A stretch of 63,998 nucleotides of DNA, filler included, from an uncultured Methanosarcinales archaeon (GTDB lineage Archaea > Nanobdellota > Nanobdellia > Woesearchaeales > JAGLXL01): the NCBI GenBank assembly GCA_964472345.1. It is 4 parts of 4 records of this genome, joined end to end, with 100 filler letters (N's around TTAATTAATTAA, not from the genome) between each part and the next. Parts side by side here need not be neighbours in the genome. Positions count along the whole stretch, not along the records: positions 21,674 to 41,995 come from CAYYLB010000012.1; positions 42,096 to 62,150 come from CAYYLB010000013.1; 2 more parts are not named here. One strand, 5' to 3'. Positions 41,514 to 58,855 of the stretch are shown in pieces. The stretch's first letter is position 1. Every line of letters starts with the position of its first letter. Below the pieces are notes generated by a model. The model searched no databases, had not been told where the DNA came from, and was given only the letters and a program-made list of their open reading frames with translations. A program made the position numbers and the translations under genes.

Positions 41514-41695
41514 GGCTCCGCAGAAACCCTCTCGCCTGCGCTCGGCACTGCCGGCTCTCTCGGCCGATTTCCCCGGGTTTTCTCTGCTCTGACCCGCTCT
41601 TCTTTTCTGAAGGAAATCGGTTCCTGCGAGCAGTGCAAGCATCGCGCCAGCCTCGTTCGCGCGGAGCAGGCAGTGCATCGGGTTTCTGCGTAGCC
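41514..41695. mobile_element. MITE C (182 bp)
   Basis: TIR GGCTCCGCAGAAACCC / GGGTTTCTGCGTAGCC (15/16); TSD TTTCTTGA/CTTCTTGA; core shared with MITE D. Confidence 0.85.
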
Positions 41696-41750
41696 CTTCT
41701 TGAGGCACCGGTGTCGTGTGCCCATCGGCACGCCTGCGCGGAAAACAAAG

Positions 41751-41887
41751 CGCCGGTGGCAGGAAAGTCACGCTGGCGCGCTCATTTGCTGCCCGCGACC
41801 AGCGATTTGAACCTGCAATCCCGTGAGGGAACTGGTTTGCCCGCAATGGTTCAAGACCAGCGCACTACCAGGTTATGCGACACCGGC
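41751..41887 (-). tRNA. tRNA-Ser(UGA) with two introns (12 nt at 37/38: 41838-41849; 41 nt at 59/60: 41765-41805)
   Basis: Acceptor GCCGGTG/CACCGGC, G73, anticodon stem CTGGT/ACCAG, variable arm TCCC-TCAC-GGGA, T stem GCAGG/CCTGC; TATA at 41911-41920. Confidence 0.92.
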
Positions 41888-42095
41888 ACACCGCGGGGGT
41901 TCGGGAGTGCGTTTATAAACTTTGGTTCTGCGAGTGCAGCATGTCGTGTCCTAATATTATTTCGTTTCAGCTTCATTTTTCATCCTCCGCCAAAANNNNN
42001 NNNNNNNNNNNNNNNNNNNNNNNNNNNNNNNNNNNNNNNTTAATTAATTAANNNNNNNNNNNNNNNNNNNNNNNNNNNNNNNNNNNNNNNNNNNN

Positions 42096-44044
42096 CATCT
42101 CGCTAAGAACAGCATAGAAATATCTCTTTTAACTTTGCCTAAACCAATTCCTTGAGTTTTTTCTAATAATCCATACCTACCCCACAAGTCTTTTGTTGTA
42201 TTTCTATAAAACACAGGTAGGGTTTCCCAATTAATCCAAGGTGGATTTCCAATAACATAATCAAATTTTCCCATCAACATTGGAGCAAACGAATTTTTTA
42301 ATAGAGAAGTCCATATCTTATTTTTACCCATATGTTCTAATTTTAAAATCTTCTCGTAAAGTCTTAAAAAAGATTGTATTGACTGGTGGCTTAAACCTAC
42401 TTTTTTATCAAGAATTGCCTCCAATTGCTTTTTATCCCAACCTATTTTTACTCCTTCATTGATAACGTTAAGAACAGGGTAAAGCAGGTTTTTATCAATG
42501 ACTTCCCTAGTTATCCAGAATTTACCTTCTGTTGTGTGCAATGTGAATTCAGCTTCGCCAAAAGGGGTTACAGTTCTCTCAACAGAAATAGAATCAGCAA
42601 GATAAATTGGAATCTCAATTCCTTCTTTTGGCCTATAGCGTAATAAGTCTGCTAAAGCGATTAAGTAGTTTGCTTTTGAAGCTAAAACAGCAAGAGGATT
42701 CAAATCAATTCCATGAACATTATTAATAACTTGTTTCAGTAATTCTCTTTTATCCAAGAAATGTTCTTCTGAATAGTCCCTTATTTTCTTAATTGTCAAA
42801 ACTAAAAAAGTCCCAGAGCCACAAGCTGGGTCTAAAACTCTTTTTTCAGGATTTCCATCATATTGAATCTCTTCTAATAGCAATTCAGCAAGCCAGTCGG
42901 GGGTAAAATATTCGCCTAGCTTATGCCTAATATCTCTTGGGACTAGATTCTGATAAAGTCTTTTAAAGAGGTCTTTTACTCTTTCTGGATTTAATTCAAC
43001 TGTTGCAGGCTCATAATCTAATAACTGTTTATTTATTTCAAAAATAGATGTTGCAATTTCTGCATCCCAATCATCCAAATACCATGCAAAGTAATCTGCT
43101 TCTAAAAAATTCTTTATTCCAAGTGTACTAAAAATTCCACCTTCTTCGAGTTCTTTTAACTCATTAAGCATATCTTCAAATTTTCCTAGTTTATCATGAT
43201 AATATGCTTCTTCAACTTTTTTCAAGTAAGAACCTAAAAGACTATCTGCAAATAATGTAACTATCTCTGAAGTCATAAGTTTCATTAAAATAGTATAATA
43301 AGTATGAATACAAAAGAATAGCTTTTCAGGATCAACGTCTTCTTGGTCAAAATCATAAAAGTCTGCCAATTTCTCAAGTTTTTCATTGGAATACGAACAA
43401 ACTTGTGAAAAAACTCTTTTCCAATCATTGAATAGCATTAATGTTCTTGGAGTTTTTGATTTGCTCAGTTTCTTATAAAATGTTGAAACGGCCTTTTTAC
43501 TAATTGGACTCTTAGGACCAAAATCCAGTAATAAAAATTCTGCATCAATAGGTTTTCTTTTTAGTCCTCGAATAGATTCGAGTAGGCGAAGAATAGTTTG
43601 GGCATTAACATCTAAAGGTGTATCTTGTTCTTCCCATTCATTTTTTCTGAATCTAACAAAAGAAATTTTATTCCCATCAATTATAACCCCAAAGTATCTA
43701 TTAAAGTACTTTGAATCTTTCCCATCTTCAGAAATATACTTTTTAATTTGCTCTTTTGCTTTGTTAAATTCAGTTTTTGAATCTAATTTTCCTGGAGATT
43801 TATATTCAATAACTACATGGCCGTAAAGAGCATCTTTTCTTGCTCCACTCACAATTGTTTTCTTTTCATAAGTTGCCCATGGAACATTCCATTTTTCAAA
43901 TACTTTAGATCTTAGAGTATACTCAATTCTTATCTTTATATCTTCTTCACTCTTAGATTGAGTAGCGTGTTTTTTTATTTCTTCAGCCAGTTCTTTTGGT
44001 TTAACATCTTCCAAGACAATTTCATTTGACATTTGAATATCCAT
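42096..44044 (-). CDS. Type IIG-like restriction-modification enzyme (N6-adenine MTase), 3'-truncated at contig end
   Basis: N-terminal D..IEYK nuclease motif; GEYFTP, DPACGSGTF, NPPW; strongly AT-rich. Confidence 0.9.
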
Positions 44045-44162
44045 TTATACACAACACTTAATATAAGTAGTTTATATTTATTTCTTTTTAAAGTGTTCGT
44101 TTCATCCGTACACCTAACCCCCTCATCGTTTAAAGTAAAAGTACAAAAGTTTAGGTCACTTA

Positions 44163-44885
44163 TTATACAAGAACGCTCTCGCGGGCCTGCAGCTGCTTCT
44201 CTTTCTCCGTCACATCCACTTCCAGCTCGACATGCCCGCAGTACGCATCCTCGATGACTTTCTTCATCCCGACAACCCCAAGCCGCCTTGCGAAGATCGG
44301 CCCGTCAATGGCCAGCGTATCGTAATAGCCGCCTTCGCCGCCGCAATGGAAGCCGTATCTCCTGCTGTCCGCGAGCAGCTGCGGCAGGTTCTCCTTCGTG
44401 AGGGTTTTTCCGAGCCAGGGCAGCAGCCCGTCGGAGGCGACCTGGGTGATGAGGAACACGTAGCCTCTGGCAAGCATCTCCTCCATGACGGCGTCGTGGT
44501 CCATCCCCGCGTGCGCTGCGAAGACCTCCACATTCAGGGGGCGCAGCGCGTCCTGGACGCTCCGGAGCTGCGTTTCCTGCAGGCCGGTGCCGCCAAGAAC
44601 GACGGCGTCAACGGGGTCGTGCTCCTGCTGTGTTTCTATTTCTTTTTTCACGAGAGCGGCCTCGCGCTTTGGATCAGCGACATCGCAGCCCAACAGGATG
44701 TGCCGGATGCCGAGCAGCTCCGCGAGCTTGGGCGTGTGCTCGACGGTGGCGAAGTGGAAGAGGAAGCAGTCCTTCCGCGTCGGCTTTACGCTCAGCAGGT
44801 AGCGCACGTCCCAGCCGCGGCTCCTGCAGTAGTCAATCGCGTACGTGCTGTCCTTCCCGCCGGAGTAGAGGATCGCGACTCTCAT
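44163..44885 (-). CDS. Diphthine--ammonia ligase (Dph6 family)
   Basis: YSGGKDS PP-loop, GEGG.Y.T, DGPIF. Confidence 0.88.
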   Translation of the reverse strand: MRVAILYSGGKDSTYAIDYCRSRGWDVRYLLSVKPTRKDCFLFHFATVEHTPKLAELLGIRHILLGCDVADPKREAALVKKEIETQQEHDPVDAVVLGGTGLQETQLRSVQDALRPLNVEVFAAHAGMDHDAVMEEMLARGYVFLITQVASDGLLPWLGKTLTKENLPQLLADSRRYGFHCGGEGGYYDTLAIDGPIFARRLGVVGMKKVIEDAYCGHVELEVDVTEKEKQLQARESVLV

Positions 44886-45098
44886 CGCCGCTGCAAGCTG
44901 GAGCTTCTTTATAAACTTTCGTGCGGTCTTCTGGCACTATCTTTTCCAAAAAAACCCGGGCTTTTCGCCTGTGCGGACAGTAAACACAAAGAACAAAAAA
45001 GGCTCGTATTGGCACTTCGTCAGTAAAAATGGGAGAGCACAACAGAAATGACTTGCCAAAGACAGGCAATTTTATAATGACGCAAGCTAAAACAGCCC

Positions 45099-46004
45099 AT
45101 GCCCGTGAAAATAACACGAAGAAAGCTGGTTGTGCTTGGACTTGGGGCGGCGACCGGCGCAAGCCTTGGCAGATACCTTAACAACACTGATATGAAACAA
45201 GCACCCATCCATGAAGGAATGGTGTTGTGCGACCTGCATGCACACCCAACACACAAAGTGCATTTGGATACTCTTGTTGAAGCCCTCAGTTCTCCAGGCA
45301 TGGTTGGTCTTACTGTCAAAAATATTGACGAGAGTGGTAAAGATATTCTAAGATACGAGCAGGCCCTCGACGTGCTGCCGGCGGGGAGCTTCACTGAGCT
45401 TGACAAAGGCAGGTTGGCAAAATGCGGAAAGGGCTACTTCGCGAGGACCCAGGAAATTCGGGTTGGAAAACATCATCTTCTTGTCGTCGGTTGGCGGGGC
45501 GGATACTTTCCGAATTTCGAAAATATCGATGATGCGGTAAAGAAAATTCACGAACAAGATGGAATTGCTATCCTCAACCACCCATTTGCACTTGTTCTAG
45601 GTCAAAACGTACGACTGCCCGAATCAGATGCAGAGCGCGATGAAATTAGGGATGCTTATGGCTGCGTCGATGAAGTAGAAACCTTTAATGCCTATTGCAT
45701 TGATCTCATTCCGCTCATCGTTGCCATGAAGCAAGCCAATAGGGACGCGGAAAACCTACGACGCGAGGAGTTTCCGCATTTTAGAGGCACTGCTGGTTCT
45801 GACTGCCATCGCCGGTGGGCGCAGGTGAAAATTGCCGGAATCTACATTGGCACGCGGGCTGTTGAATCCGGGATGGATGGCATTAAAGGAGCAATAACAA
45901 ATGGTGAATTCGAGCGTCTCGGTGACTCTGAAACAGGACCTTATGTGAGCAGAGGCAGCTTCATTCTCGGCATGGGCGGCGATATGCTCGCAACACTCCG
46001 CTAG
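45099..46004 (+). CDS. PHP-domain phosphoesterase with twin-arginine-like leader
   Basis: TRRKLV leader; DLHAH, HLL, NHP, ETFN, GSDCH. Confidence 0.85.
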   Translation: MPVKITRRKLVVLGLGAATGASLGRYLNNTDMKQAPIHEGMVLCDLHAHPTHKVHLDTLVEALSSPGMVGLTVKNIDESGKDILRYEQALDVLPAGSFTELDKGRLAKCGKGYFARTQEIRVGKHHLLVVGWRGGYFPNFENIDDAVKKIHEQDGIAILNHPFALVLGQNVRLPESDAERDEIRDAYGCVDEVETFNAYCIDLIPLIVAMKQANRDAENLRREEFPHFRGTAGSDCHRRWAQVKIAGIYIGTRAVESGMDGIKGAITNGEFERLGDSETGPYVSRGSFILGMGGDMLATLR

Positions 46005-46080
46005 GGCAACCGCTCTGTCTGCTTTCGCTGTGGGAAGTGCACCCCCAAGAAATACCACCACGAAGACGCCTGCGCCCCTT

Positions 46081-47199
46081 TCAGCCCAGCTCGAGCTCCA
46101 CCTTCTTGTTCTTCAGGTCAACCACAGCTACTGCACTGTCCCTAGCAAGCAGCCCGCGGACCGCATCCCAGCCGCCATTGGCACGGGCGAGCCCGACGCT
46201 ATCAAGGAGCTTTTTGACCTGCAGGTAGTGCTCATAGAGCGCATCACCCTTTCGGGTTTCCTCTGCGGCCTGCGCTTCGAGCGCTGCGAGAGCGTGCTGC
46301 TGCTTTTCGATGATCGTGCGGAGCTGCTGGATCTTCTGATGGTAGCGCTGCTCGACCGCGAGCTGCTGCTGCCGGGCTCTTGTCGTGCTGATGAGCGCGT
46401 CGAGCGCCTCGTGGAAGGTGGCGAATTCCCGCTGCAGCGCCTGCTGCGTGATGGGAATGGGGGTGATGGCGCCCGACTGCCACAGGTAGCCGCGCGGCGT
46501 CCCGAGCTCGCCGAGCAGCGAGACGAACGCCCTTCCGACGGCTTCGCGCTGCCTGTCCGTGAGCGCCTTCGGAGCGGTGCTCTTGTCGACGGCAGCACGC
46601 GCGCAAAGCTCTTCCGCATACAGGCCGCCGAGGCCAAGCCCGGTTGCAAGGGCGGTGACGAGCTTGTCTTTCTCCGATGCGGCGAGGAGCGCCATAAATT
46701 CACCCTGCTGGAGCGTGAAGATTTGGGCAACATCCGGCGGCGGCACGTAGCGCACGCCGATGCGCAGCTCGCGGGACTGCCAGTGCTGGCGCTCGAGAAG
46801 GAGCGCGATGGTGCGGTCAGCGCCGCAGAGGATGATGTTCCCCTTGGAAAAGAGCTCGAGGATGAGCTCCATGGGGTGCTCCTTCTGAAGCGAGCAGGTG
46901 ACGATGCGCTGGGCGCCGAGCTGCCCGATGGCGGTGATGGTGGCGCTGGCGATGCGCCGGCGGAGCTGCAGGCAGAATTCCGACGCATTCGTATTGGCCC
47001 TGTGCGAGGTCTCGTAGAGCAGCCTGCCGGCGACGATGCGCACTAGGCGCTTTCCGCTGCCGGGAAGGTGAAGCTGGAGGATGAGCTCTTTTGCACCTGC
47101 CTGGTAGACCTGGTCGATCTTTGCGCCGACGAGGGGCTGGAGCTCCGTAACGACGGCGTGCAGCTCGATGCCGGAAAGCTCGGGACTGGAAGGATTCAT
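46081..47199 (-). CDS. NFACT/RqcH (Rqc2-like) N-terminal part
   Basis: GAKIDQVYQ, FCLQLRRRI, ELFSKGNIIL, LGGLYAEELC, coiled coil. Confidence 0.88.
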   Translation of the reverse strand: MNPSSPELSGIELHAVVTELQPLVGAKIDQVYQAGAKELILQLHLPGSGKRLVRIVAGRLLYETSHRANTNASEFCLQLRRRIASATITAIGQLGAQRIVTCSLQKEHPMELILELFSKGNIILCGADRTIALLLERQHWQSRELRIGVRYVPPPDVAQIFTLQQGEFMALLAASEKDKLVTALATGLGLGGLYAEELCARAAVDKSTAPKALTDRQREAVGRAFVSLLGELGTPRGYLWQSGAITPIPITQQALQREFATFHEALDALISTTRARQQQLAVEQRYHQKIQQLRTIIEKQQHALAALEAQAAEETRKGDALYEHYLQVKKLLDSVGLARANGGWDAVRGLLARDSAVAVVDLKNKKVELELG

Positions 47200-47290
47200 G
47201 GCTTTCTTTCCTTTCGCGGTGGTTTATATGGCTTTGCGGTGCTCCCGAGCAGCCCGAACTGCTGGGGACAGGAGGCTGCGGCATCCACAT

Positions 47291-48562
47291 TTACGCCTGC
47301 TCCGCTTCCTCCAGCAGCCATTTCCACAATGGGAGGATGCGCACCGGGCCATTGCTCCCTTCGGCGCTTCTGGTGAGGATGAGCTGCTCTTTCGTCCTTT
47401 TGAACTCCCTCGCGAACTCCTGAAGGGCGAGCAGCTCCCTTTCATCGAGCCTGTCCGTGAATGAGACATTGATGGCGCTGAGCGTCTGGTCACGGTTTTT
47501 GACAACAAAATCAACTTCGCCACGGCCCTTCCAGTAGTACGCTTCCTTCCCCCGCCGCCAGAGCTCCGCACGGACGCAGTTCTCCGCCAATCGACCCGTG
47601 TCAGGAGAAATGCGGAAACCGACGACGTTGCGCATGCCGCAATCGAGCGCATAGCTCTTTTTCGGCAGCCTCGACGTTTCCCTGAACGAATAGGAAAAAT
47701 GGTCGAGCGGCAGGAGGAGGTACGCATCCTCCAGATAGGAGAGATACTCGCCGACGCTGCCGATGGAAAGCCCCGTGAGGCCCCGCAGCTTCCGGATGGT
47801 AAACGGGCTTGCAATGCTGGTCAGGAGCGCAACGGCAAGCTCGGTCACCTTGGCCGCATGGGTATGATGCCGCTTCACAATGTCCTTGTAGATGATATCA
47901 TCAACGTACTGCCTGAGGAGGAGCCTCTTGAGCTCCCGCTCCTTGAAAAAGACCTCAGGAAATCCCCCGAATTCGAGGTAGCCGTTGAGGGCGTGGAGCA
48001 CCTGATGCGTTGCGGCCGGCGTCTTCTGCCCATATGCAATGCCGGAGAAGTCCAGGAACTCCCGAAACGAAAGGGGGGCGATGGTGAAGGTGAGATTGCG
48101 GCCCGTCAGGAGCGTCGACAGTTCCCCGTGGAGAAGACTCGACGAAGAGCCGGAGACGACAAACTTCACTTTCTCATGAAGGTCGTAGTATTTCTTGAGC
48201 GTCTGCTCCCATCCGGGAACATTCTGGATCTCATCGAGGAAGACGAACGCGTGCGCCCCGGGGTTCTTCTGCTGCCGATAGAATGCGTACAGCGATTCGA
48301 TCGTCTCTTTCCTGAGGAGGTCGTCATCGAGATTCACGTAGAGGATCTGGTGGGGATGGTGCGCTTCAAGCAAGGAGGCGATCATCTGATACATGAGCGT
48401 CGTCTTCCCGCTCCGCCTGATGCCTGTCAGCGCGACGATCTCGCGTGCTGCCAGCGCCTTGAAGAGCAGGGGGTCGACGGATCTCAGCGTGCCGCGAAGC
48501 GCCCCCGGCACCTCTTTCGTTGCCCACCACGGGTTCCAGGTGTTGAGATACTCGATTTCCAT
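47291..48562 (-). CDS. AAA_14 + DUF4143 ATPase
   Basis: WNPWW, GIRRSGKT, LDEIQ, GGFPE, GRLAEN, EVDF. Confidence 0.92.
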   Translation of the reverse strand: MEIEYLNTWNPWWATKEVPGALRGTLRSVDPLLFKALAAREIVALTGIRRSGKTTLMYQMIASLLEAHHPHQILYVNLDDDLLRKETIESLYAFYRQQKNPGAHAFVFLDEIQNVPGWEQTLKKYYDLHEKVKFVVSGSSSSLLHGELSTLLTGRNLTFTIAPLSFREFLDFSGIAYGQKTPAATHQVLHALNGYLEFGGFPEVFFKERELKRLLLRQYVDDIIYKDIVKRHHTHAAKVTELAVALLTSIASPFTIRKLRGLTGLSIGSVGEYLSYLEDAYLLLPLDHFSYSFRETSRLPKKSYALDCGMRNVVGFRISPDTGRLAENCVRAELWRRGKEAYYWKGRGEVDFVVKNRDQTLSAINVSFTDRLDERELLALQEFAREFKRTKEQLILTRSAEGSNGPVRILPLWKWLLEEAEQA

Positions 48563-48726
48563 TAGGCTGATGAGGCTGCTTTATTTATAAATGTTACTAT
48601 CAAATCGTTCATTTTTTTGCTATTTTGAACGCTTAATCGTTCATATTTAAGAATGCTCCATGAGACCACCATGCCCTGCAAAAACGGATGGGGTGGGCTT
48701 CGGTGCCTGAATGCGGGGAACAATCC

Positions 48727-49905
48727 TCACCGACGCTCTTTCGCGATGCTCCAGAGAAGCCCGAACTGCTGGCGGTAGGAGTCCGCGACTTCCTTGTTGT
48801 CGATGAGGATAAGGTGGTTCGGCGCGCCCCAGAGGAAGATGGCAACCTTGCTCCCGTAGACCTCGAATGCGGTGCTGCCAACCACCTCTTTCGGGAGGAA
48901 GCGGTAGGCGGTGGTTTTGGCTTCGGGAAGCTCGCGGGTGCCTTCTTTGGCAATCACCCGCTCGCGGATCCCCATTTTCCTGATGGTCCTGAAGTATTCG
49001 TCGAGGTCGGCAGCATAGCCGGGATGAAGCTGCATAATGGTTTCGTCGTCAATGCCGAAGATGAGCACTTCGTCGCCTTTCGTGAGCGTTTTTGTTATGC
49101 TTTTCAGCATCGTCCGGTACTCGAACAGGCCCTTGTGCAAGGTGACTTTTATCTGGTCCTGTGGGGAGGTGTGGAGTTGGTCGTGCTGGGAGGCGATGCT
49201 CCAGAGAAGCTTATGGTACTTCCGGAAGGCGTCGGCCAGCGGCCTGCTCCGGATCATGATGATGGTGAGCGGCTCCCAGATGAGGATCGAGATGACGTTC
49301 CCGTAGACGGCGAACGGCGTTGGGCTGAAGTATTCCTTCGGGATGTAGCGGTAATGGGCCGCCTTCTCCTTGAAGATGAACTTCGTGCCTTCTTCCGCAA
49401 GGAGCCACTCATTGATGCCCAACCGGGCTTCCTCGCGGAACATCTTTTTCATCTCAAAGGGGAACATTGCGTTGAACTTTGACTCGTCAACGCCGAAGCC
49501 GTAGAAATCGCCGCCGTTCTTCAGCTCGCGCAGGTGGTCGGAGATGAAGCTCTTGAAGCCCTCGCGGCCTTTGTAGATCTCGACGGAAAGGTCCTCCTTC
49601 TGGAACGCTGCAAGCTTCTTGAGCTGCGGGAGGATGGTGAGCAGGTGGCTTTCCTTCTCCTTCAGGAGCTCGTGGAGCTTTTCGGGCGGGGCAACCTTGA
49701 AGCACTTGACGTTCGACTGGATGCTGAAGCTGACGAGCCCCTTTTCAAGCAGGTGGTCAAGGAAGTCGTACAGCGTCGTGCGGTGCTGGGCGGTTTCTTT
49801 TGTCAGGGCGCTGACCGGGCTTTGCCCTAGCTTGAGGAGAGCGAGGTAAACCCTGATCTCGCCTTCGGAGAGGCCGAGCTCGGCCAAGACGGCTTTTTCG
49901 TCCAT
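48727..49905 (-). CDS. TrmB-like HTH regulator with tandemly duplicated effector domain
   Basis: LGLSEGEIRVYLALL HTH; two repeats each with YR.P..VYG and ending LLWSIA. Confidence 0.88.
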   Translation of the reverse strand: MDEKAVLAELGLSEGEIRVYLALLKLGQSPVSALTKETAQHRTTLYDFLDHLLEKGLVSFSIQSNVKCFKVAPPEKLHELLKEKESHLLTILPQLKKLAAFQKEDLSVEIYKGREGFKSFISDHLRELKNGGDFYGFGVDESKFNAMFPFEMKKMFREEARLGINEWLLAEEGTKFIFKEKAAHYRYIPKEYFSPTPFAVYGNVISILIWEPLTIIMIRSRPLADAFRKYHKLLWSIASQHDQLHTSPQDQIKVTLHKGLFEYRTMLKSITKTLTKGDEVLIFGIDDETIMQLHPGYAADLDEYFRTIRKMGIRERVIAKEGTRELPEAKTTAYRFLPKEVVGSTAFEVYGSKVAIFLWGAPNHLILIDNKEVADSYRQQFGLLWSIAKERR

Positions 49906-50018: not shown

Positions 50019-50180
50019 ATGAAACTGCGGGCGATGCTGGGAGTGAACATTACCGACGATGAGGTCATGAGGCTCGTCAAAGAAGCGTATGAGCACAACC
50101 AGCCGGCAGTACGGTTGCCTCGCGGGGAAGGATTTGTGATGGTGCGGCTGCCGCGCCTGAACATTGAGGGAGGGAGGTAA
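50019..50180 (+). CDS. 53-aa small ORF heading the HD/PEP-domain operon (not in ORF track)
   Basis: MKLRAMLGVNITDDEVMRLVKEAYEHNQPAVRLPRGEGFVMVRLPRLNIEGGR; stop 2 nt before next ATG, 3' end supplies GGAGG SD. Confidence 0.6.
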   Translation: MKLRAMLGVNITDDEVMRLVKEAYEHNQPAVRLPRGEGFVMVRLPRLNIEGGR

Positions 50181-50182
50181 CC

Positions 50183-51283
50183 ATGACAACAAAAACACTT
50201 CAGGACGTATTGAATAGGATAGGATTTGGGAATGAGCCTAGTTTTATTGACGGCGGACTCTACTCTGTCAGCGATCTTGCTGAACGGTCTACTGCCCTAG
50301 GCATGGCAGATAGTGTTGGAGGTGTGCTGGGCGCTGCTGCTTCATCTGTCGCCCAAGGCCGGACGCACGAACTGCTCCATTGTTTTGATGTTGGCTTTGG
50401 CGCGGCAGCACTCGTCAAAAATATCCGAGAAGACGGAAATGCGCAGCGGAAACTTGGGCTATCGGATGATGCTCTTACGGATGATGCCGTGCGAAGCGCG
50501 TTTCTCGCCGGGCTTTTCCATGATATCATTCTCTCATACGACGGGAGCCGGCTTGAGGGAGCTACGCCGGAGAGCACAATTGAAGCGGTTGTTACGCCTA
50601 CTGCGGCAGCCACTTTTCAAGGTAAGGCCCAGTACATAAAAGATGCCGTTGGCGATGATTTGCGTGGTGCGCTTGTACTTAAAGCGTCTTCCTCTCATCT
50701 CAATCCAGGTGTTTGTCGGGCTGCCGTTCAGCTACTGCTGTCTGGCTCAGATATCAAATTGCGCGAGGAACCTCAGAGCGCTTTTGGCCGCCTCAATCCT
50801 TATAAAGTCCTCGATGCAATCTGGTACCATGACGGCAATTACCCCATTCGAGGACACGCAGAAGCGGATGCACTCGTCGGTGATCGTTTGCGCCTGTTCA
50901 AGGAAGGGCGCGTCGGCATAGAAGTCGTTGAAGCGGGCATCAAGAAGCTGCTCGGCTATACAGAGCAGGATCCACGATGGGCTGAGCGGAGCGAGCGCCC
51001 CGATGCGGAGTATCTTGTACGTATGGTGAAGAAAAAGGCAGGAACTTTCCTTGACGATGTCGCAGGAACTGATACGTACGCTTTTGTTGTTGATGGGCTC
51101 GCATCGCAAAGGAGAAGTAAACGGACGCTGCGCAGTCCTGCGTTCTGGGCGGGTGTTGATATGATGCCTTGCGTTATTGCGCAGCTCAAGGGTAACGCGC
51201 AACTCAGGGCATCGTCTGGCGAGGCGATCGATATTCTTCAGCAGCGTTATGATGAAGTGCAGCAGTACCGCCGAGGTAAATGA
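50183..51283 (+). CDS. HD-domain metal-dependent phosphohydrolase-like protein
   Basis: H(C)...AGLFHDI...YHDG...GDRL metal ligands. Confidence 0.7.
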   Translation: MTTKTLQDVLNRIGFGNEPSFIDGGLYSVSDLAERSTALGMADSVGGVLGAAASSVAQGRTHELLHCFDVGFGAAALVKNIREDGNAQRKLGLSDDALTDDAVRSAFLAGLFHDIILSYDGSRLEGATPESTIEAVVTPTAAATFQGKAQYIKDAVGDDLRGALVLKASSSHLNPGVCRAAVQLLLSGSDIKLREEPQSAFGRLNPYKVLDAIWYHDGNYPIRGHAEADALVGDRLRLFKEGRVGIEVVEAGIKKLLGYTEQDPRWAERSERPDAEYLVRMVKKKAGTFLDDVAGTDTYAFVVDGLASQRRSKRTLRSPAFWAGVDMMPCVIAQLKGNAQLRASSGEAIDILQQRYDEVQQYRRGK

Positions 51284-51284
51284 G

Positions 51285-51590
51285 ATGACAACACTCTCGG
51301 GCACATGCGTCTGTCCGGGCATTGTTCATGGAACCATTAGGCGTTTTGTGCTGGGCAGCGCGTACACCAAACAGGATATTGTTGTTCTTGATCAATGGCT
51401 GACGCAGGATGTGCTTGCGCTCAAAGATGCGGGAGCGCTACTTTCTGCAACCGGCGGCGTCACGTCGCATGCCTCGATTGTTGCACGCGAACTTGGCATC
51501 CCTGCACTTGTGAATGTTGAGACCACAAAACTGGCTGAGGGGCAGCACGCCATGATTGATGCTGCGGACGAGAGGGTTGAGGTACAATGA
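51285..51590 (+). CDS. Stand-alone PEP-utilising mobile (phosphohistidine) domain
   Basis: GGVTSHASIVARELGIPALV. Confidence 0.88.
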   Translation: MTTLSGTCVCPGIVHGTIRRFVLGSAYTKQDIVVLDQWLTQDVLALKDAGALLSATGGVTSHASIVARELGIPALVNVETTKLAEGQHAMIDAADERVEVQ

Positions 51591-52891
51591 TCACAAAATA
51601 CACAACGGAAGCAAGGGCAGCGCCAAACAATGAAGTCTGGGAACTGGAGAAAGATGGGAAAAAGTATGTCTGCGAGCGGCCCGCATACACTTTGAAGAAG
51701 CTTGAGGTAGAGCTGCTCTCGAAAGGATTTGAAGATGAATCAATGCTTCTCTTTGGAAAAGTATTACCTTTTTTCTTTGAAGACAACGGACGCTGGTGGG
51801 CTCACCCATCACTCGGCAGCAGGGAAATGCTCTCGGTATTCGTAAAAGACCCATTAGCCTATATCAAAGCAGTCATACACAAAATAGATGCCGTTAAGAA
51901 CGTTGTGCACATTCTTCGTGAGGTTGAGGTCTCGCTTGATGCGAAAGATAGTGCCACTCTCTTTGAAAACTTTAGGAAGCTTGTTAGCGCGTATGTGCAG
52001 TTTTATTCTTATCATTTCCTGACCTATATTGTGAGCGATGAGATTGTTCTGCGATTCCGGAAGCTTCTCGAGTCTTTTCTCTCAAGAAAAGAGATGAATG
52101 CGTATTTCACTGATTTTCTCCAGGCAGAGATTACGAAAGAAGCAATAAAAGTGGGTGCAATTGGTGAGACCACTGAGCTCAAGCGCGATTTGATGTATTC
52201 GGCCATGAAACCAATTATCTTTTATCGTGAGCCCAAGCTCTTTTTTGATTTTTCAAAGGATAACGCGGTTGTCACGAAGCTCTGTGCTGCGCACTTGTCA
52301 CCTGAAACTTTCCGGGAATTTTTTGCGTTGCGCCTCATCACTCCCATCTCCATCCAGATCAATGAGGAAGGACAATATATCGAGAGCAAGATGCTATGCC
52401 CCATGATAAAGATTGTGCTTGATAACATAAAAGAAGTGCTTGTGCATGGTGGTCTTGTTGAACGTGCGACAGATATACGGGATTTTTCCCAACAGGAGAT
52501 TGGATATATGCTTGAAACCGTTCACAGACAAAAGCCAAAAAAAATTGCCGTGAAAGGGTTTGGGGTGAGCCAGGGCAAAGCCCGCGGGCGAGTTAAGATC
52601 ATCAAAGACATCAATGATCACCACAAATTCAATCTGGGAGATATCCTTGTCACCCATATAACAGACCCGACAATGGTCATACTGATGGGAAAAGCCGCAG
52701 GCATTATCTGCAATATTGGAAGCGTAGCCAGCCACCCTTCTATCTTAAGCAGGGAGATGGGCATCCCGTGCATCGTTCAGGCAGCGTGCGTTTCTACAGG
52801 TAAGCCCGTTACCGACGTGCTCAAAGACGGAGATCTCATCCATATGGACGGTTTAAGCGGCGAGGTGCATCACCTTGGACAGCTGGATTGA
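51587..52891 (+). CDS. Helical protein with C-terminal PEP-utilising mobile domain
   Basis: GSVASHPSILSREMGIPCIV, LKDGD; no ATP-grasp domain seen. Confidence 0.85.
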   Translation: MITKYTTEARAAPNNEVWELEKDGKKYVCERPAYTLKKLEVELLSKGFEDESMLLFGKVLPFFFEDNGRWWAHPSLGSREMLSVFVKDPLAYIKAVIHKIDAVKNVVHILREVEVSLDAKDSATLFENFRKLVSAYVQFYSYHFLTYIVSDEIVLRFRKLLESFLSRKEMNAYFTDFLQAEITKEAIKVGAIGETTELKRDLMYSAMKPIIFYREPKLFFDFSKDNAVVTKLCAAHLSPETFREFFALRLITPISIQINEEGQYIESKMLCPMIKIVLDNIKEVLVHGGLVERATDIRDFSQQEIGYMLETVHRQKPKKIAVKGFGVSQGKARGRVKIIKDINDHHKFNLGDILVTHITDPTMVILMGKAAGIICNIGSVASHPSILSREMGIPCIVQAACVSTGKPVTDVLKDGDLIHMDGLSGEVHHLGQLD

Positions 52892-53951
52892 CCAGTACGT
52901 TGAATCGGTGCTTGCTGCACTCGGCGCCATGGACTTTGGCACGCTGCAGCCGTTTGACCACCTGCAGTTCCAGCCGCTGATGGCAAAGGAGTTTGTTGAG
53001 AAGATTGACGAGTTTGTCCGGCGGGCAAAAACGCAGAACATCCCATTCAGGGAGCTTGCGGCGCTCTGGCCGGGGATGTCATCGCTGCGCTGCCAGCTGT
53101 ACTTCCTGCTGCTGGATCTCAAATGCGCGCGGATTCCGCGAGAAAAGCGGCTTGAGCTTGCGGACTTCTTTTTCAACATGCTTTCTGCAGGTGCAAAGGA
53201 TGATGTCTTCGGCTTCCGCTCGAACATTGTCCACACCACCGGCGAGGTGAAGGAGCTTCTCAGCGCAAAGCAGCTCAAGCAGGCAACGCCGGAGATTGCG
53301 CGATGGCTGGGGAAAATCTACACGGCGCTGTACAACCTTGGAGCGGGCTATTATGTTGACTTTTATTTTGACTATGGTGCTGAGAACGAAGGGCCGTACG
53401 ACGTTTCCGGTCTGTTCGGACCCGGCCACGTGCTCGTAATCAAGCGATTTACGGGCATGAAGCCTGTGGAGCTGTTTACGACTGCCGCGGCATTTATTGC
53501 GGATGACATTCGGATTTATTCCATTTATCAGAACGTCATTTACCGGACCGACATGATCTCGCTTCATGCAACGTACGACGGTGACACAATCAACAGCCTG
53601 AAATGGTGGGGACTGGAGCTCGACGGGAGGATGGTGGAAACTGCGGAACTCCCCGGCATCTTCGAGCGATCGGCGGAGGCATCGGTTGCGCAGTGGCAGC
53701 GGCTGACGTCATTATCTTTTGAAGAGCAGAAGGCCAAGGCTGCGGAAATCCGCTGCTTTGGCATGCGGAAGCTCTTCCTGCGCGCCGGGATGGACTGGCG
53801 GCCGACGGCGAAGATGCTCGACGCGCTGAAGGGCAAGCCGTTCAAGGACAACACATACTGGAATATCCCTTCGGACAAGAAGCAGGCGCTGCTCTTCTGG
53901 AGAATGCTTTACGATCCGCGGGAAGAGGCTTATCCGGGGCGGGGGTTTTAA
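52875..53951 (+). CDS. Hypothetical protein (last gene of the PEP-domain operon)
   Basis: TTG start after GAGGTG SD, overlapping upstream gene; long ORF. Confidence 0.75.
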   Translation: MDSWIDQYVESVLAALGAMDFGTLQPFDHLQFQPLMAKEFVEKIDEFVRRAKTQNIPFRELAALWPGMSSLRCQLYFLLLDLKCARIPREKRLELADFFFNMLSAGAKDDVFGFRSNIVHTTGEVKELLSAKQLKQATPEIARWLGKIYTALYNLGAGYYVDFYFDYGAENEGPYDVSGLFGPGHVLVIKRFTGMKPVELFTTAAAFIADDIRIYSIYQNVIYRTDMISLHATYDGDTINSLKWWGLELDGRMVETAELPGIFERSAEASVAQWQRLTSLSFEEQKAKAAEIRCFGMRKLFLRAGMDWRPTAKMLDALKGKPFKDNTYWNIPSDKKQALLFWRMLYDPREEAYPGRGF

Positions 53952-54253
53952 CGTATACAAGCATTCCTCGCAGCAGAACCCGCAGTAGCTCCTGTTCTGG
54001 CTCCCTGTTGCTGACGATGATCATCTCTGGTCTTGTTTAAAATGTGTTCTCATCCAGCAGAAGACTTTACGGAAAAGTTTCCTCTCCCGACCGCAGGGTT
54101 TTCATGTGCCTCGTCAAGGAGCAGAGCGGAACGGCTCCGGGCCTCTCCCGTTGCGCTCGCCGCATGTGCGCTGCAAATCTACGAAACATTTATATATAAA
54201 ACTATCTATTCACTATAGATTCACTATAAAAATCTAGGTATCGGGGACCTGCC

Positions 54254-54496
54254 ATGAAAGACACCACCCTCACGCTCAAGTTCCGGGGCACGGAAGCAGC
54301 CGTCCTCGAGCGGATGGTGCGCACCGGGCTGTTTAACACCAAGTCAGAAGCGATCCGATCGGCGCTGGTGCATTACTCGCTCGAGCTGGGGCTGCTGGGC
54401 CGGGAAAAGCTTTGGAAGGAGATCGCCGCATTTCCCCGGAGGAAGATCGACCCTGCGCAGCTCGCAAAAGAGCTTGAGGCACTGGAAGATGCGTAG
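54254..54496 (+). CDS. RHH (CopG/Arc) antitoxin
   Basis: LTLKF...LERMV..G.F.TKSEAIRSAL; ATTCACTATA direct repeats upstream. Confidence 0.82.
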   Translation: MKDTTLTLKFRGTEAAVLERMVRTGLFNTKSEAIRSALVHYSLELGLLGREKLWKEIAAFPRRKIDPAQLAKELEALEDA

Positions 54497-54911
54497 AGTG
54501 TTCATCGACACGAATGTCTTCATCTATGCTTTTGAGTATCCTCATTCCAACAGCGCCATTATCCTGGATTTGCTGAACAAGGGCGAGATTGAGGCAGTCG
54601 TTTCTGAGCGCGTCGTTCATGAGGTGGTTTGATATTTTGAGAGGCGCCACTCCATCGCGCTGGCACGGTTGTTCCGCCGCTACCTGCATGAAGCATGCGT
54701 GATTATTTCCCGTCAGAACGTCCTTGATGCAATGGAGGCCTACCGGAGAAACATCAATGAGAAAGACCTTGAGCAGCTGGCGGTCACCAAGAAGCTCAGG
54801 ATCCCTCACCTGATTTCCTATGACCGCGATTTTGCAGGGGTGAATGAATATATCACGCCGCGGGCATTTGCTCTTCTGATGAAACGCCGTGATGCAGAAA
54901 CGGAGTTCTAG
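54489..54911 (+). pseudogene. PIN/VapC toxin with in-frame TGA at 54630-54632
   Basis: MRRVFIDTNVFI...HEVV*YFERR...KDLEQL...ISYDRDF in one frame. Confidence 0.85.
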
Positions 54912-54945
54912 CCTCCGCCGTCGATATGCCTTCCGCACTTTTTCT

Positions 54946-55446
54946 CTACCACTCAAGCCTCTCACGGACCGTCCCAATAACCGTATCCGCATCAACCCCC
55001 CGCGTCGTATCAACAATGAGCACCTTGTGCCCTGCTTCCTGTGCCTCGGTGAGGCAATTATCAAATATTTCCGCGTCGAGGTTCTCCCGTACTTTCGCTG
55101 CGGGATAGCCGCGGGCTTCCAGGCGCTGCTGCAGGACTTTCAAATCGCAGCGGGTGACGATGCAGAGGTCAACATATTTTTTAGGAAGATGCTGGCTCAG
55201 GTGCGAGTCGATCACGAGATTTTCTTTCTTTTCCCCCGCTTCCGTACTGAGGGCGATGAGCTCCCTGTTGAGCTTCCCGACATCAACGATCCTGCACTGG
55301 CGCTGCCCGTCGTAGTCCTCGCAGAGCTGCTTCCGGTCAATCAGGGCGTTCACGTCGATGCGCCGGAAGCCGAGCTTTTGCCCGATGAGCTGCGCGAGCG
55401 TGCTCTTGCCGGTGCATGGGGTGCCGGTGATGATGAGTACTGCCAT
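54946..55446 (-). CDS. Adenylate kinase, AK6/hCINAP type
   Basis: ITGTPCTGKST, IDSH, RL..RGY...KVREN..AEI. Confidence 0.9.
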   Translation of the reverse strand: MAVLIITGTPCTGKSTLAQLIGQKLGFRRIDVNALIDRKQLCEDYDGQRQCRIVDVGKLNRELIALSTEAGEKKENLVIDSHLSQHLPKKYVDLCIVTRCDLKVLQQRLEARGYPAAKVRENLDAEIFDNCLTEAQEAGHKVLIVDTTRGVDADTVIGTVRERLEW

Positions 55447-55481
55447 TATGTGGAGAGTTTGAAAGGATGGAAGAGCATGCC

Positions 55482-57539
55482 TTACTTCTCCTTGAGCCTG
55501 CGCAGCTCCTCGTTCACGCGCTGGAGCTCGGCCTCCCAGGGCGGCGTGCGCGGCTGCGGGGCCCGTGATGGCGGAGGCTGCGAGGAAGGCTGCTTCTGCT
55601 GCTGAGGCGGCTGTGGTGCGGGTTTCGGCTTTTCTGCCTCTTTCGCCTGCTGCTGCCTGCCGCCCTGCGGCGCCTGCTTCTGCGCTGGAAGTGCTACCAT
55701 CTGCGCCTTCGCCTGCTCGTCGCGGCGCTTCCTGAAAAACTTCTGCAGGAATGCGAGCGACTTCTTCCTGGGCAGCGGCGTCGCCTGCACGGCCTCGGCA
55801 AGGTGATCATGCTCCTGCTGCTCGAGCTCATGCCGCTTCCTCTTGTGGTGCTGGTACATGAACTTCTGCACGTAATGGCGGCTCATGAACTGCTGGGACC
55901 CCCAGATGAAGAGGAACAATGCGATCGAATACAGCGAGAGGTAGACTGCGTCGAGTATGATGGTGTCGAGCGATGTCCTGAAGAGCACGACTTCCCGAAG
56001 CATCTGCTCGGCGAGGACAAACGGGTTGAAGGCTGCGATGCTCCGGAGCGCGGCGGGCATGCTCTCGAGCGGAAGGATGACATCTGATAGCAGCAGCAGG
56101 ATGCTTCCGGTTGAGATGCTTGCGAGAGTCGCGGTCTCCTCCGATGTCAGGATGTACCCTATCAGCATCCCGGCGAAGGTAAAAAATGTCCCTGCAAGCA
56201 GCAGTGAGCCGATGACCCCAGGCATGCTCGGAAGAATCTGCGCGGAAAAGAAGAAGCTCGCAATGACGAGAATGATGAAAAGCTGGATGATGAGCAGGAG
56301 CATGTTGGTCAGGTACGTCCCGAGCACGAAGGTGATATCCCTGGTGGGAGTTATGAAATTGCGGAAAAACGCAGGGCTGTGCTTTTCCATCATGACCATG
56401 GTGCTGCCGAGCAGCAATGCGATGAACATGACGACCAGCACGATCAGGCTCGGGAAGAGGTAGTTGAGGTAGGTCTGCTGCGCGGCGACCGGCCGGATGT
56501 CCGTGACAATCGGCTCTGCGATCGCTTCGGGGTTTGTCACCTTGATCGAGTTGATCTCGCCGATGATACCATTGATCGTGCTTTCAATGCCTGCGAGCTG
56601 CTCCATGCCCTGGCTCATGCGCTGCTGCACCGCGGTGAGCGCCTCGACGGAGCTCTGCCGTGCGGTGTCCGCGGCCGTGAGGCGTGTCTTGATGTTCTCG
56701 AGCTCGCGCTGAACGTCCCCGAGCAGCACACCGAGGTGCGTCAGGCTCTGGTTCTCCGCGTTGATGAATTTCTTGGCGATCTCGATATTGGTGATGGCGC
56801 TGTCAAGCTGAAGCTCGAGTTCGTCTCCCGAGACGCCCGATTTCACGGAAGAGACATTTTTCTTCGCATCATCAAGCTTCTCGCTCAGCGTGTCGCGGAT
56901 GAGAACGAGCATCTCCTTCGCTGCACTGAGGGGAAGCGCCCCTTCGTTGTAGGACAGGTCGAGCGCGCCCAGGCTGGCGGTGATCTGCTGGGCGGTAGTT
57001 GCGGTGCTTTCCGTATGCGACTTCACGGAAGCAAGCGCCTCCTGCTTTCCCTGAAGCTGCTGCCTTGAGTCGTCGAGCTTGCTGATCAGCACGCCTGTCA
57101 GGTTTTTGCTGATCTCGCGCGCACTTGAGCCGAAGTGGACGTTCAGCGTGTCCATAATCATCCAGACAAGGTTGATCTTGCTGTGATCGACGTAGAAGAT
57201 GACCTCCTTCTGCTCATTCGTCTCAAATGCGAGGTTTTCCGGAAACATGATGCAGGTGTTGGTGATGCCGGCCTTGATGTCCTCCACGCATTCCTGCTCC
57301 AGGTCATACCTGATGATGCGGAAGTCCTGCTCGGCGAGCTGGTCAAGGAACCGGTTGAGCTGAGGACCGAAGGCTTTCGCGTGCACCCCGATGGTAAGGC
57401 CGAAGGTATTGGTGTTGTCGAACGCAAGGCCGACGAGCAGAATCAGCAGCAGCGGGGCGAGAATGACGATCAGCGCGGAGGTCTTTGAGCGGATCAACAG
57501 CTTCAGATTCTTGCTGATAATGGGAATGAGCGTCTTCAT
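55482..57539 (-). CDS. ABC-2 exporter permease with large coiled-coil ectodomain
   Basis: KNLKLLIRSK N-terminal TM, heptad-rich ectodomain, C-terminal TMs with LPLESMP/FNP. Confidence 0.88.
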   Translation of the reverse strand: MKTLIPIISKNLKLLIRSKTSALIVILAPLLLILLVGLAFDNTNTFGLTIGVHAKAFGPQLNRFLDQLAEQDFRIIRYDLEQECVEDIKAGITNTCIMFPENLAFETNEQKEVIFYVDHSKINLVWMIMDTLNVHFGSSAREISKNLTGVLISKLDDSRQQLQGKQEALASVKSHTESTATTAQQITASLGALDLSYNEGALPLSAAKEMLVLIRDTLSEKLDDAKKNVSSVKSGVSGDELELQLDSAITNIEIAKKFINAENQSLTHLGVLLGDVQRELENIKTRLTAADTARQSSVEALTAVQQRMSQGMEQLAGIESTINGIIGEINSIKVTNPEAIAEPIVTDIRPVAAQQTYLNYLFPSLIVLVVMFIALLLGSTMVMMEKHSPAFFRNFITPTRDITFVLGTYLTNMLLLIIQLFIILVIASFFFSAQILPSMPGVIGSLLLAGTFFTFAGMLIGYILTSEETATLASISTGSILLLLSDVILPLESMPAALRSIAAFNPFVLAEQMLREVVLFRTSLDTIILDAVYLSLYSIALFLFIWGSQQFMSRHYVQKFMYQHHKRKRHELEQQEHDHLAEAVQATPLPRKKSLAFLQKFFRKRRDEQAKAQMVALPAQKQAPQGGRQQQAKEAEKPKPAPQPPQQQKQPSSQPPPSRAPQPRTPPWEAELQRVNEELRRLKEK

Positions 57540-57574
57540 CCTACCTCTTTTTTCTGATTACATATGACCGAGCG

Positions 57575-57830
57575 CGGAGTTGGTGCGATGCGAAGAGACT
57601 GCGTCTCTGGCAACTCCTCGCCTCGCTCGGAGTAATTCGCTGTCGCGGCACTGCGGTGGCAAGCCAGCACTCCCTAAAGTCGTGCACGTCGGCGCTCCGC
57701 CGATTTCCGTAAAGTTAGCCCCATCATATCTCGCAATGCGAGCCGAAGGAAATCGGTTCCAGCGAGCCCTGCAAGCAGTGCACTGCGTCGCTCGCAACGG
57801 GGGGCAGTGCATCATTTCGCACCAACTCCG
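57575..57830. mobile_element. MITE D (256 bp) inserted into the 3' end of the ABC ATPase gene
   Basis: 14-bp perfect TIR CGGAGTTGGTGCGA / TCGCACCAACTCCG; TSD CCGAGCG at 57568-57574 and 57831-57837. Confidence 0.88.
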
Positions 57831-58783: not shown

Positions 58784-58855
58784 GGTTTTCCCCGCTCTTT
58801 GCCACCCCAAAGGTCTGGCGGATTTATAAAGGTTTTTCTTACGGGTTTTGAGCAG

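Follow-up and report, generated by a model that had tools for sequence, protein, structure and literature searches.

Elements C and D, two MITE-like elements of an archaeal genome with unrelated TIRs, share homologous interiors that are conserved in a block-wise manner. This confirms the claim of an initial annotation of this DNA that the same core lies inside unrelated ends. Both elements fall within the window, namely the whole stretch of 63,998 nt that was analysed, where they are on different contigs with N spacers (41996-42095) between them. On the whole, the data point to a shuffling of parts among mini-transposons, and so far not to a new RNA gene; the two elements are probably, if far from certainly, modular MITEs with a common foldback interior and different ends in a MITE-rich genome of the DPANN type.

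Structure and genomic setting of elements C and D

The host is an uncultured groundwater archaeon, and its genome is DPANN-type and rich in MITEs. Five TIR-bounded elements were recognized in the window, giving 10 pairwise comparisons of interiors. The MITE reading of three additional repeats (25283-25454, 38550-38721 and 39208-39310) was dropped, as these represent shared coding tails. The features of C are the following:

41514-41695, element C, MITE-like, 182 nt
41514-41529 (+) and 41680-41695, left and right TIRs, 16 nt, 15 of 16 positions complementary
41531-41679 (+), shared core, covariance model match of 134.1 bits
41531-41545 (+), block B1
41546-41551 (+), block B2
41563-41572 (+), block B3
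41573-41608 (+), 36-nt loop
41609-41641 (+), block B4
41669-41679 (+), block B5

Element C begins 90 nt downstream of a gene for a TrmB-family regulator (40630-41424, +), and its core strand is sense with respect to that gene. Its TIR yields two matches in the window as against 0.06 expected, with no sites beyond the element itself. The flanks carry TTCTTGA on both sides with the right copy offset by 1 nt, leaving the target duplication ambiguous. Element D is longer and more sharply delimited:

57575-57830, element D, MITE, 256 nt
57568-57574 and 57831-57837, left and right copies of the target-site duplication CCGAGCG, 7 bp
57575-57588 (+) and 57817-57830, left and right TIRs, perfect, 14 of 14 positions complementary, length 14-15 nt
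57589-57616 (+), D-specific 28-nt segment forming a small perfect hairpin, not in C
57617-57813 (+), shared core, covariance model match of 130.3 bits
57617-57630 (+), block B1
57631-57648 (+), 18-nt insertion between B1 and B2
57649-57654 (+), block B2
57655-57698 (+), 44-nt segment between B2 and B3, the counterpart of which in C is 11 nt
57699-57708 (+), block B3
57709-57744 (+), 36-nt loop
57745-57777 (+), block B4
57803-57813 (+), block B5

It sits between an ABC ATPase gene (57812-58810, -), which now terminates at a stop codon within the right end of D, and an ABC-2 permease gene (55482-57539, -), with its core strand antisense to this ABC operon. The D TIR likewise has no sites in the window beyond the element itself.

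The interior shared by C and D

Local alignment of the two interiors gives a score of 74, compared with 21.7 +/- 3.4 and a maximum of 35.5 in 300 dinucleotide shuffles, and a score of 27 in the reverse orientation. Identity is clustered: 86 of the 133 gap-free columns are identical, with runs of 16, 11, 10, 8 and 7, and the total of columns lying in identity runs of at least 7 was reached by none of 10000 column shuffles. All the blocks named in the initial annotation were recovered, five in number and identical in order and strand in both elements. B1 is identical at 14 of 15 positions, with one 1-nt indel; B2 is CACTGC, B3 is GCCGATTTCC and B5 is GGCAGTGCATC in both; and B4 is identical at 30 of 33 positions, which brings the blocks together to 71/75. 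The first 23 nt of B4 are found exactly twice in the window and in none of 100 shuffles. A covariance model of the core (R1), run against the window with filters off, retrieved C and D only, the next best match scoring 11.6 bits.

The pairings proposed for the core, GCACTGC with GCAGTGC (7 bp) and GCCGATTTCC with GGAAATCGGT (10 bp), involve complementary sequences in C as well as in D, with a second GCAGTGC in each offering a rival partner for the pairing of B2. The loop, described as free to differ, is indeed identical at only 9 of 36 positions while being of equal length (36 nt) in C and D. The "variable hairpin" placed between B4 and B5 did not hold up, the similarity in this segment being ordinary sequence homology with no conserved hairpin. 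B1 and the remaining part of B4 are conserved yet unpaired, and a pure foldback role leaves them unexplained.

Independent assortment of ends and interiors

A third element of the window provides the counterpart to this pair:

9575-9768, element B, 194 nt, TIR with 13 of 13 positions complementary
9566-9574 and 9769-9777, perfect target duplications of B, 9 bp

The TIR of B is of the C type, with 11 of 13 positions matching the TIR of C. The interior of B shows no relationship to those of the other two elements (B-C score 20, shuffle maximum 36; B-D score 31, shuffle maximum 35), and the window search with the core covariance model returned no match in B. An 11-mer common to B and D falls within chance by the B-D score. 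Similar interiors are seen in just one of the 10 pairs of window elements, namely C and D, and no isolated B1 or B3 modules were detected beyond chance. As B joins a C-type end to an unrelated interior, and C and D join a common interior to unrelated ends, ends and interiors assort independently.

Mobility of D and its copies in sequencing runs

The description of C and D as MITE-like is borne out by the TIRs of both and, in the case of D, by an empty site and further copies. The sequencing runs returned by the search were all DNA runs. Contigs from two sequencing runs, X5 (1175 nt) and X6 (3444 nt), which belong to two studies other than that of the source, join position 57566 directly to 57830 and represent related strains lacking the element. 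The joint skips 263 nt, corresponding to the 256-nt D plus one 7-bp duplication. Furthermore, all eight partial D pieces among the matches listed, from 4 runs, start at 57575/57579 or stop at 57826/57830. As these pieces are bounded within 4 nt of the D termini and continue beyond them into unlike sequence, they represent other D copies at other loci. Thus, D is a real mobile insertion. Between D copies, the end regions differ at 6 of 64, 9 of 75 and 9 of 100 positions, and other copies carry a 2-nt insertion in the loop of the D-specific hairpin (57589-57616).

We consider it very improbable that the similarity of C and D is an artefact or a one-off event, such as repeats assembled into a chimera or one ectopic gene conversion between two loci. 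The draft does consist of multiple contigs, the Logan contigs of the source runs break inside D, and the copies of the core available as sequence are two only. However, the overlapping source-run pieces covering D (X1 records 1, 3 and 4) agree without differences, and D-type ends are found in 4 runs from 3 studies. Gene conversion, moreover, would produce one continuous tract rather than five blocks with unalignable segments of unequal size between them.

The contig depths hint at a wider distribution of part of the core. In the bin covering B4 (57752-57798), the summed depth, which is a sum of contig depths and not a copy number, is 42.2 in X1, 21.5 in X5 and 14.7 in X6, of which the D-type contigs among the matches listed account for about 23.3, 3.6 and 4.9, respectively, these shares being calculated from the listed pieces only, and not from 402 others. 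The depth of the next bin, with the right TIR of D, is fully accounted for by the D-type contigs among the matches listed. Given this excess in the one bin and its absence in the other, B4 may be common to more contigs than the D end. Parts of D (bin 57658-57704) are uncovered in X5 and X6.

Folding potential, RNA families and further copies of the core

Beyond the shared core itself, the initial annotation had suggested a mobile module of structured RNA or single-stranded DNA. In our estimate, the core is unlikely to function as a structured RNA or as a recognition module of ssDNA that is maintained by purifying selection of its own and rides on, or swaps between, MITE families with different ends. 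We are just as doubtful of the more specific form of this reading, in which the ~150-nt core would be a selected module, comprising a structured RNA or folded ssDNA signal with sequence-specific unpaired blocks, framed by the active ends of at least two unrelated MITE families of groundwater DPANN-type archaea. In favor of such a module, the 10-bp and 7-bp pairings are invariant around a loop at random-level identity, and the blocks of C and D are more alike than are the end regions of D copies among themselves. The conserved unpaired stretches suggest sequence-specific recognition, D lies within an operon and is predicted to be co-transcribed, and the summed depths apparently place B4 in more contigs than the D right end. 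A fold common to both elements, comprising the TIR stem, the 7-bp helix and the 10-bp helix, is also near-optimal, lying above the optimum by 1.4 kcal/mol in C and 1.5 kcal/mol in D.

Several other observations argue against it. None of the 17 proposed base pairs varies between the two sequences; hence, covariation is uninformative and gives no signal. The folding z-scores of the interiors relative to shuffles are weak (C -2.5/-1.1, D -0.7/-0.9), the interior of D showing no advantage over its shuffles, and stronger values are reached by MITEs of the window whose interiors are not related to these (B -4.5/-5.4, E -3.0/-2.8). In D, a local hairpin is in competition with the 10-bp helix, for which the model accordingly gives a probability of just 0.03, and this value together with the weak z-scores of D weakens the case for the foldback as the conserved feature. 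The core is sense in C and antisense in D, which leaves no consistent transcribed strand, and the segment between B4 and B5 lacks a common hairpin. At the gathering score, Rfam 15 recovers only the 5S rRNA in the window, and at E-values up to 10 nothing overlaps C and there are no matches around D. Thus, the match to a known RNA family that the initial annotation had named as telling against a new RNA was not found, and neither was a transposase-gene remnant, which it had named alongside, in Pfam, NCBIfam and protein searches. Readings as a BHB-intron, C/D-box, attC or retron element were rejected by eye, their defining motifs or partner genes being absent.

Searches for further copies of the core retrieved look-alikes. 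An exact 20-mer of B4 is present at 15 loci in public genome contigs and 22 loci in metagenome contigs, all of which were rejected as core copies, since they lie in bacterial DNA that is unrelated and for the most part coding; at none of these loci is the 20-mer accompanied by B5, by the remaining part of B4 or by a partner arm at hairpin spacing. The two copies of the window were themselves not returned, which places the source assembly outside the genome and metagenome contig collections searched. Viral contigs gave no match to the B4 20-mer or to B5 with the D end; their 20 matches to the hairpin pattern are all chance palindromes and their 3 matches to a 16-mer are likewise due to chance. 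A C-type TIR pair with a gap of 100-130 gave no match in the viral contigs either, this pattern being uninformative, as B has a gap of 168 and C a mismatch in its right arm. A blastn search of D against plasmids and phages returned no match, and in none of the genome, metagenome, viral, plasmid and phage collections searched was a sequence relative found.

Coding capacity

The blocks could alternatively be coding remnants, for example the ends of transposase genes, with C and D having arisen by internal deletion from two autonomous insertion sequences related to each other. Such an origin has a certain appeal in the spacing of the blocks: the block-to-block length differences between C and D are 18, 33, 0 and 2 nt, of which the first three are multiples of three. 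In both C and D, one plus-strand frame runs from B1 to B4 without a stop and reads the blocks in a common frame, and one of the differences in B4 is synonymous in one frame. Nevertheless, open frames are expected from the A-poor, GC-rich composition of this DNA, in which 4 of the 6 frames are open across C, and the translations are rich in Arg, Ser, Ala and Pro without a shared start codon. None of the 14 stop-free six-frame pieces of C and D matches a Pfam family at E-values up to 1, and with NCBIfam these pieces give one noise match only (E 0.14). A HMMER search with the plus-strand ORF of D against 1.84 billion representatives returned 3 matches, all of them tandem-repeat proteins matching artefactually through repetition, and word-based protein searches with two other frames across the elements returned nothing. 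Furthermore, related parents should have related TIRs, and those of C and D are unrelated. A coding origin thus appears quite improbable.

Among the 49 window ORFs scanned with Pfam, from a total of 60 non-overlapping ORFs of at least 90 aa, no transposase family was detected, and no Y1/HUH, TnpB, IscB or IS110 genes were found.

Proposed origin and relationship to known elements

As modular MITEs, C and D would be non-autonomous cut-and-paste elements with transposases supplied in trans, belonging to two mobilization groups set by their unrelated TIRs, and both interiors would descend from one ancestral sequence. The layout of the blocks would permit a foldback with the TIRs as terminal stem, followed by the 7-bp helix (B2/B5) and the 10-bp helix (B3 and the first part of B4), the latter capped by the freely varying loop. 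We infer the route of end exchange and the function of the blocks as follows. The interior might be a reusable foldback chassis that acquired new ends either by recombination or by nested insertion and deletion among the MITE families of the genome, and the blocks might have been kept because copies retaining them transpose or survive better. On single-stranded or cruciform DNA they could keep both element ends in contact, or they could be tolerated in co-transcription at gene ends. With just two core-bearing copies available as sequence, selection on the blocks and mosaic recombination are indistinguishable, and two sequences constitute a lead rather than a result. If the interior stays conserved while the ends change, it might contribute in cis, be it by folding or by being recognized, or might be a small module hitch-hiking on transposon ends.

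Prokaryotic MITEs, such as Correia/NEMIS of Neisseria and SM1-SM4 of Sulfolobus, form families that are normally defined by their ends, with the interiors usually seen as free filler. The present elements resemble them in size (130-260 nt), in their TIRs and 7-9-bp duplications, in being noncoding and situated between genes or at their 3' ends, and in having an empty site in relatives and several copies. They differ in that two families with unrelated ends share one block-wise conserved interior. C and D are also comparable to ERIC/IRU, BIME/REP and BOX, intergenic repeats with a mosaic or foldback make-up in bacteria, which are modular and hairpin-forming, are often co-transcribed with the genes next to them and have variants produced by insertions at fixed internal sites. 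REP/BIME repeats lack a TIR and target duplication and depend on RAYT; D, in contrast to REP, REPIN and BIME, is bounded by a TIR and flanked by a 7-bp duplication, with no Y1/HUH gene among the scanned ORFs. C and D are also unlike IS200/IS605-type derivatives (PATE), as D possesses a TIR and duplication rather than subterminal hairpins alone, and unlike carriers of omega-RNA or bridge-RNA, given that no TnpB, IscB or IS110 was found among the scanned ORFs.

A parallel to the combination of B and C is provided by the TIMEs, described as non-autonomous elements with one end type around various cores (PMC4133298); in B and C, too, one end type encloses different core modules. As portrayed in that account, TIMEs are bacterial, with 38-bp Tn3-type ends and 5-6-bp duplications, unlike C and D, and the presence of one core inside different ends is the converse of what is described there. 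That selection could act on interior blocks has a precedent in mPing/mPong, in which internal MITE regions, and not the TIRs alone, are described as promoting or inhibiting transposition (PMC9921582); these are plant PIF/Harbinger elements tested in yeast. Among archaea, DPANN and Woesearchaea are reported, in the account given by PMC11602168, to fall in the most MITE-dense group. In these tiny, reportedly MITE-dense DPANN genomes, the construction and exchange of repeats bears on genome plasticity, and such exchange also bears on assembly errors in DPANN genomes derived from metagenomes.

Unrelated ends around a homologous interior

The MITEs C and D, situated on different contigs, are bounded by terminal inverted repeats (TIRs) that show no mutual likeness, and their interiors carry the same blocks (B1 to B5) in identical order and on the same strand.

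Elements C and D and the units of their shared core
41514-41695, C: 182 nt, 16-nt inverted repeat at its ends with one mismatch
57575-57830, D: 256 nt, perfect 14-nt inverted repeat at its ends
B1: 14/15 identical between C and D, one 1-nt indel
B2 (CACTGC): identical
B3 (GCCGATTTCC): identical
Loop: 36 nt in both elements, 9/36 identical
B4 (33 nt): 30/33 identical
B4-B5 segment: 27 nt in C, 25 nt in D, alignable in part
B5 (GGCAGTGCATC): identical

D alone has an 18-nt insertion after B1 and a 28-nt segment with a hairpin adjoining its left end, and its B2 and B3 are spaced by 44 nt versus 11 nt in C. The likeness of the two interiors is far above chance: their local alignment scores 74, against 21.7 +/- 3.4 (maximum 35.5) for 300 dinucleotide shuffles and 27 for the opposite orientation, and the 86 identical positions among 133 gap-free columns are clustered in runs of 16, 11, 10, 8 and 7, a clustering equalled by 0 of 10000 column shuffles. 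These values bear out the initial annotation, which had described the same ordered blocks inside unrelated ends, and the loops of equal length do differ as freely as it had stated. The variable hairpin that it placed after B4 does not survive, as the B4-B5 stretch aligns as sequence and a common hairpin is not kept.

Remnants of coding sequence could in principle account for such blocks, given that three of the four block length differences (18, 33 and 0, but not 2) are divisible by three and that one plus-strand frame is open across B1-B4 in both elements. However, the 14 six-frame pieces free of stops have no Pfam match at E up to 1, NCBIfam returns a lone noise match (E 0.14), word-based protein searches of two other frames yield no match, and a HMMER search of the D plus-strand ORF against 1.84 billion representatives recovers three proteins, all of them tandem-repeat proteins matched via repetition. 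A coding origin is hence of low probability, and the transposase-gene remnant raised in the initial annotation does not appear in the Pfam and NCBIfam comparisons.

D as a mobile element

D is a mobile element, as seen from its flanking repeat, an empty site and further copies. It lies between direct 7-bp repeats (57568-57574 and 57831-57837). One study provides four groundwater metagenome runs, two of them possible sources, that match the DNA around it nearly word for word; two runs from other studies match it partially. We compared the Logan contigs of four runs with positions 57000-58400. X5 (soil) and X6 (groundwater, from another study) contain a strain that has this ABC-transporter operon and departs from the window sequence at 26 of 567 positions in the flanks; its contigs join 57566 straight to 57830, skipping 263 nt (256 + 7). 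The two records that span this joint measure 1175 and 3444 nt and extend 255 nt on its shorter side; the joint is the empty site of D. Read directly, the ATPase gene in the empty site ends two codons past the duplication; with D inserted it reads on into the right end of D and stops there. The permease start and its ribosome-binding stretch are just outside the left end, and D is thus placed inside the minus-strand operon, with its core as written on the plus strand.

At least eight further contig pieces among those listed match the ends of D only: four start at 57575 or 57579 and match over 54-75 nt, and four stop at 57826 or 57830 after 61-100 nt. Each shows 2-9 differences and either continues into unlike sequence or reaches the end of its contig. 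These are D-type copies at other loci, from four runs of three studies, of which run X1 is possibly the source sample and hence not independent of the window. The source-run contigs break within D, and a 57-nt contig over 57644-57700 has a depth of 37.9 versus 11-13 in the flanks, a summed depth rather than a copy number, which is compatible with a repeat.

Further elements and the assortment of ends and interiors

An inverted-repeat scan of the window, followed by reading of the sequences, recovered three more elements with both TIRs and target duplications, and the window is thus rich in MITE-like elements.

Further TIR-bounded elements of the window
9575-9768, B: TIR 13/13, perfect 9-bp target duplication
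14955-15177, A: 223 nt, TIR 18/18, 8-bp target duplication (7/8), one more end at 63916-63940
60022-60154, E: 133 nt, TIR 16/16, target duplication of 8-9 bp

The additional end of A is a 25-nt stretch, 92% complementary to the right end of A and near the end of the last contig, and therefore likely belongs to a second copy cut off by the window edge. E is intergenic, with an FAD-dependent oxidoreductase gene on one side and a PfkB kinase gene on the other. Segments of B (9759-9768) and D (57812-57830) each form the extreme 3' end of a gene, the stop codon of which now comes from the inverted repeat of the element.

The TIRs of B and C agree at 11 of 13 positions, both differences being transitions, and the interior of B is unrelated, scoring 20 against C and 31 against D (shuffle maximum 35). 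That of E has no relation to the interiors of A-D, and C-D is alone among the 10 pairs of A-E in having similar interiors. B and C thus have one end type around two interiors, and C and D have two end types around one interior, which implies that ends and interiors assort independently. This is the strongest support within the window for the proposal that different transposon ends carry the core or exchange it.

Structural potential of the core

The block pairs named in the initial annotation as pairing are complementary in both C and D, forming a 7-bp helix (B2 with B5) and a 10-bp helix (B3 with the start of B4). All 17 helix pairs common to the two elements are invariant, so that covariation in the alignment speaks neither for nor against a structure. 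Whole-element folding relative to shuffles gives z of -3.8 to -4.7, largely because of the TIR stem; on the two strands the interiors alone give -2.5/-1.1 in C and -0.7/-0.9 in D, and the corresponding values are -4.5/-5.4 for the unrelated interior of B and -3.0/-2.8 for that of E. The common fold (TIR stem, 7-bp helix and 10-bp helix) lies above the optimum by 1.4 kcal/mol in C and 1.5 kcal/mol in D. The probability of the 10-bp helix is about 1.0 in C and 0.03 in D, in which B3 overlaps a local 6-bp hairpin; that of the 7-bp helix is 0.07 and 0.10 in the two elements on account of a second GCAGTGC in each. RNAalifold, applied to a hand-anchored alignment, keeps both helices on the plus strand and on the minus strand prefers the 10-bp helix together with a B1/B4 pairing that would cross the 7-bp helix. 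The transcribed strand also differs: in C the core lies downstream of a TrmB gene in sense orientation, in D it is antisense to the operon. The proposed check for a known Rfam family found none at gathering score for C/D, and none within the elements at E up to 10.

A functional RNA or ssDNA module riding different transposon ends, the bolder reading, appears rather unlikely to us: the block-and-loop pattern is the sole point in its favour, and none of the tests positively supports it.

Proposed modular evolution of the elements

C and D belong, as MITEs, to two mobilisation groups and have in common a homologous foldback interior that is conserved block by block. We lean toward modular MITE evolution in a repeat-rich DPANN-type genome as the most economical reading, under which the blocks would have been retained because of their importance in cis. 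Both halves of this modular reading have precedents: in TIMEs one end type frames various cores (PMC4133298), and in mPing internal regions tune mobility (PMC9921582). DPANN genomes, including one from Woesearchaea, are among the most MITE-dense archaea according to a 2024 survey (PMC11602168). A limited search of open-access full texts turned up no account, for prokaryotes, of a single core framed by unrelated ends.

Search for further copies of the core

The suggested covariance-model search, run on the window with a model of B3-B5, recovers only C and D (134 and 130 bits; next 11.6 bits). An exact B4 20-mer occurs at 15 loci in genomes and 22 in metagenomes, with none of the other blocks present; these loci were rejected as core copies, their flanks being bacterial, unrelated and for the most part coding. 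Searches of viral contigs, and blastn against plasmids and phages, for C/D-related sequence were empty or gave chance matches.

Summed depth over the B4 bin (57752-57798) is 42.2 in X1, 21.5 in X5 and 14.7 in X6, of which the listed D-type contigs contribute about 23.3, 3.6 and 4.9, respectively; in the adjacent bin over the right TIR of D they account for the depth wholly. In X3, the remaining run, the excess is about 8 and equal over both bins. An excess over B4 without one over the right TIR is an indirect hint of contigs that lack the D right end, as C does, and by the summed depths of the pieces listed B4-like sequence seems to be present in such contigs.

Host organism and other features of the window

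The window is a multi-contig draft with N spacers at 21574-21673, 41996-42095 and 62151-62250 and a 100-N scaffold gap at 23584-23683. The Pfam scan, which covered 49 of its 60 non-overlapping ORFs of at least 90 aa, found no transposase family among those 49; they include fibrillarin, a RadA/Rad51-type recombinase, ribosomal protein S2 and two TrmB-type regulators, by which the source organism is an archaeon.

A weak tRNA-like match (Rfam tRNA, 16 bits, threshold 29, E 2.2) lies at 41797-41887 (minus strand), about 100 nt from C. Its anticodon loop contains a 14-nt insertion and its T arm is broken; ARAGORN, even with introns allowed, calls no tRNA there or elsewhere in the window. The exact 55-nt duplicate flanking the scaffold gap (23529-23583 and 23684-23738) is probably an unmerged assembly overlap. 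About 2 kb at a contig start (42096-44000) has 30% G+C, the remainder of the contig having 50-65%, and may represent either an island of foreign DNA or an assembly mis-join. Three ORFs (25283-25454, 38550-38721 and 39208-39310; 73-96% DNA identity) have in common a near-identical hydrophobic tail at the C terminus that runs into a Lys/Arg-rich end, which looks like a membrane-anchor or sorting tail of surface proteins. Finally, a 92-nt direct repeat of 96% identity (26330-26421 and 27819-27910) adjoins a nucleotidyltransferase and AbiEii-type toxin-antitoxin gene pair.
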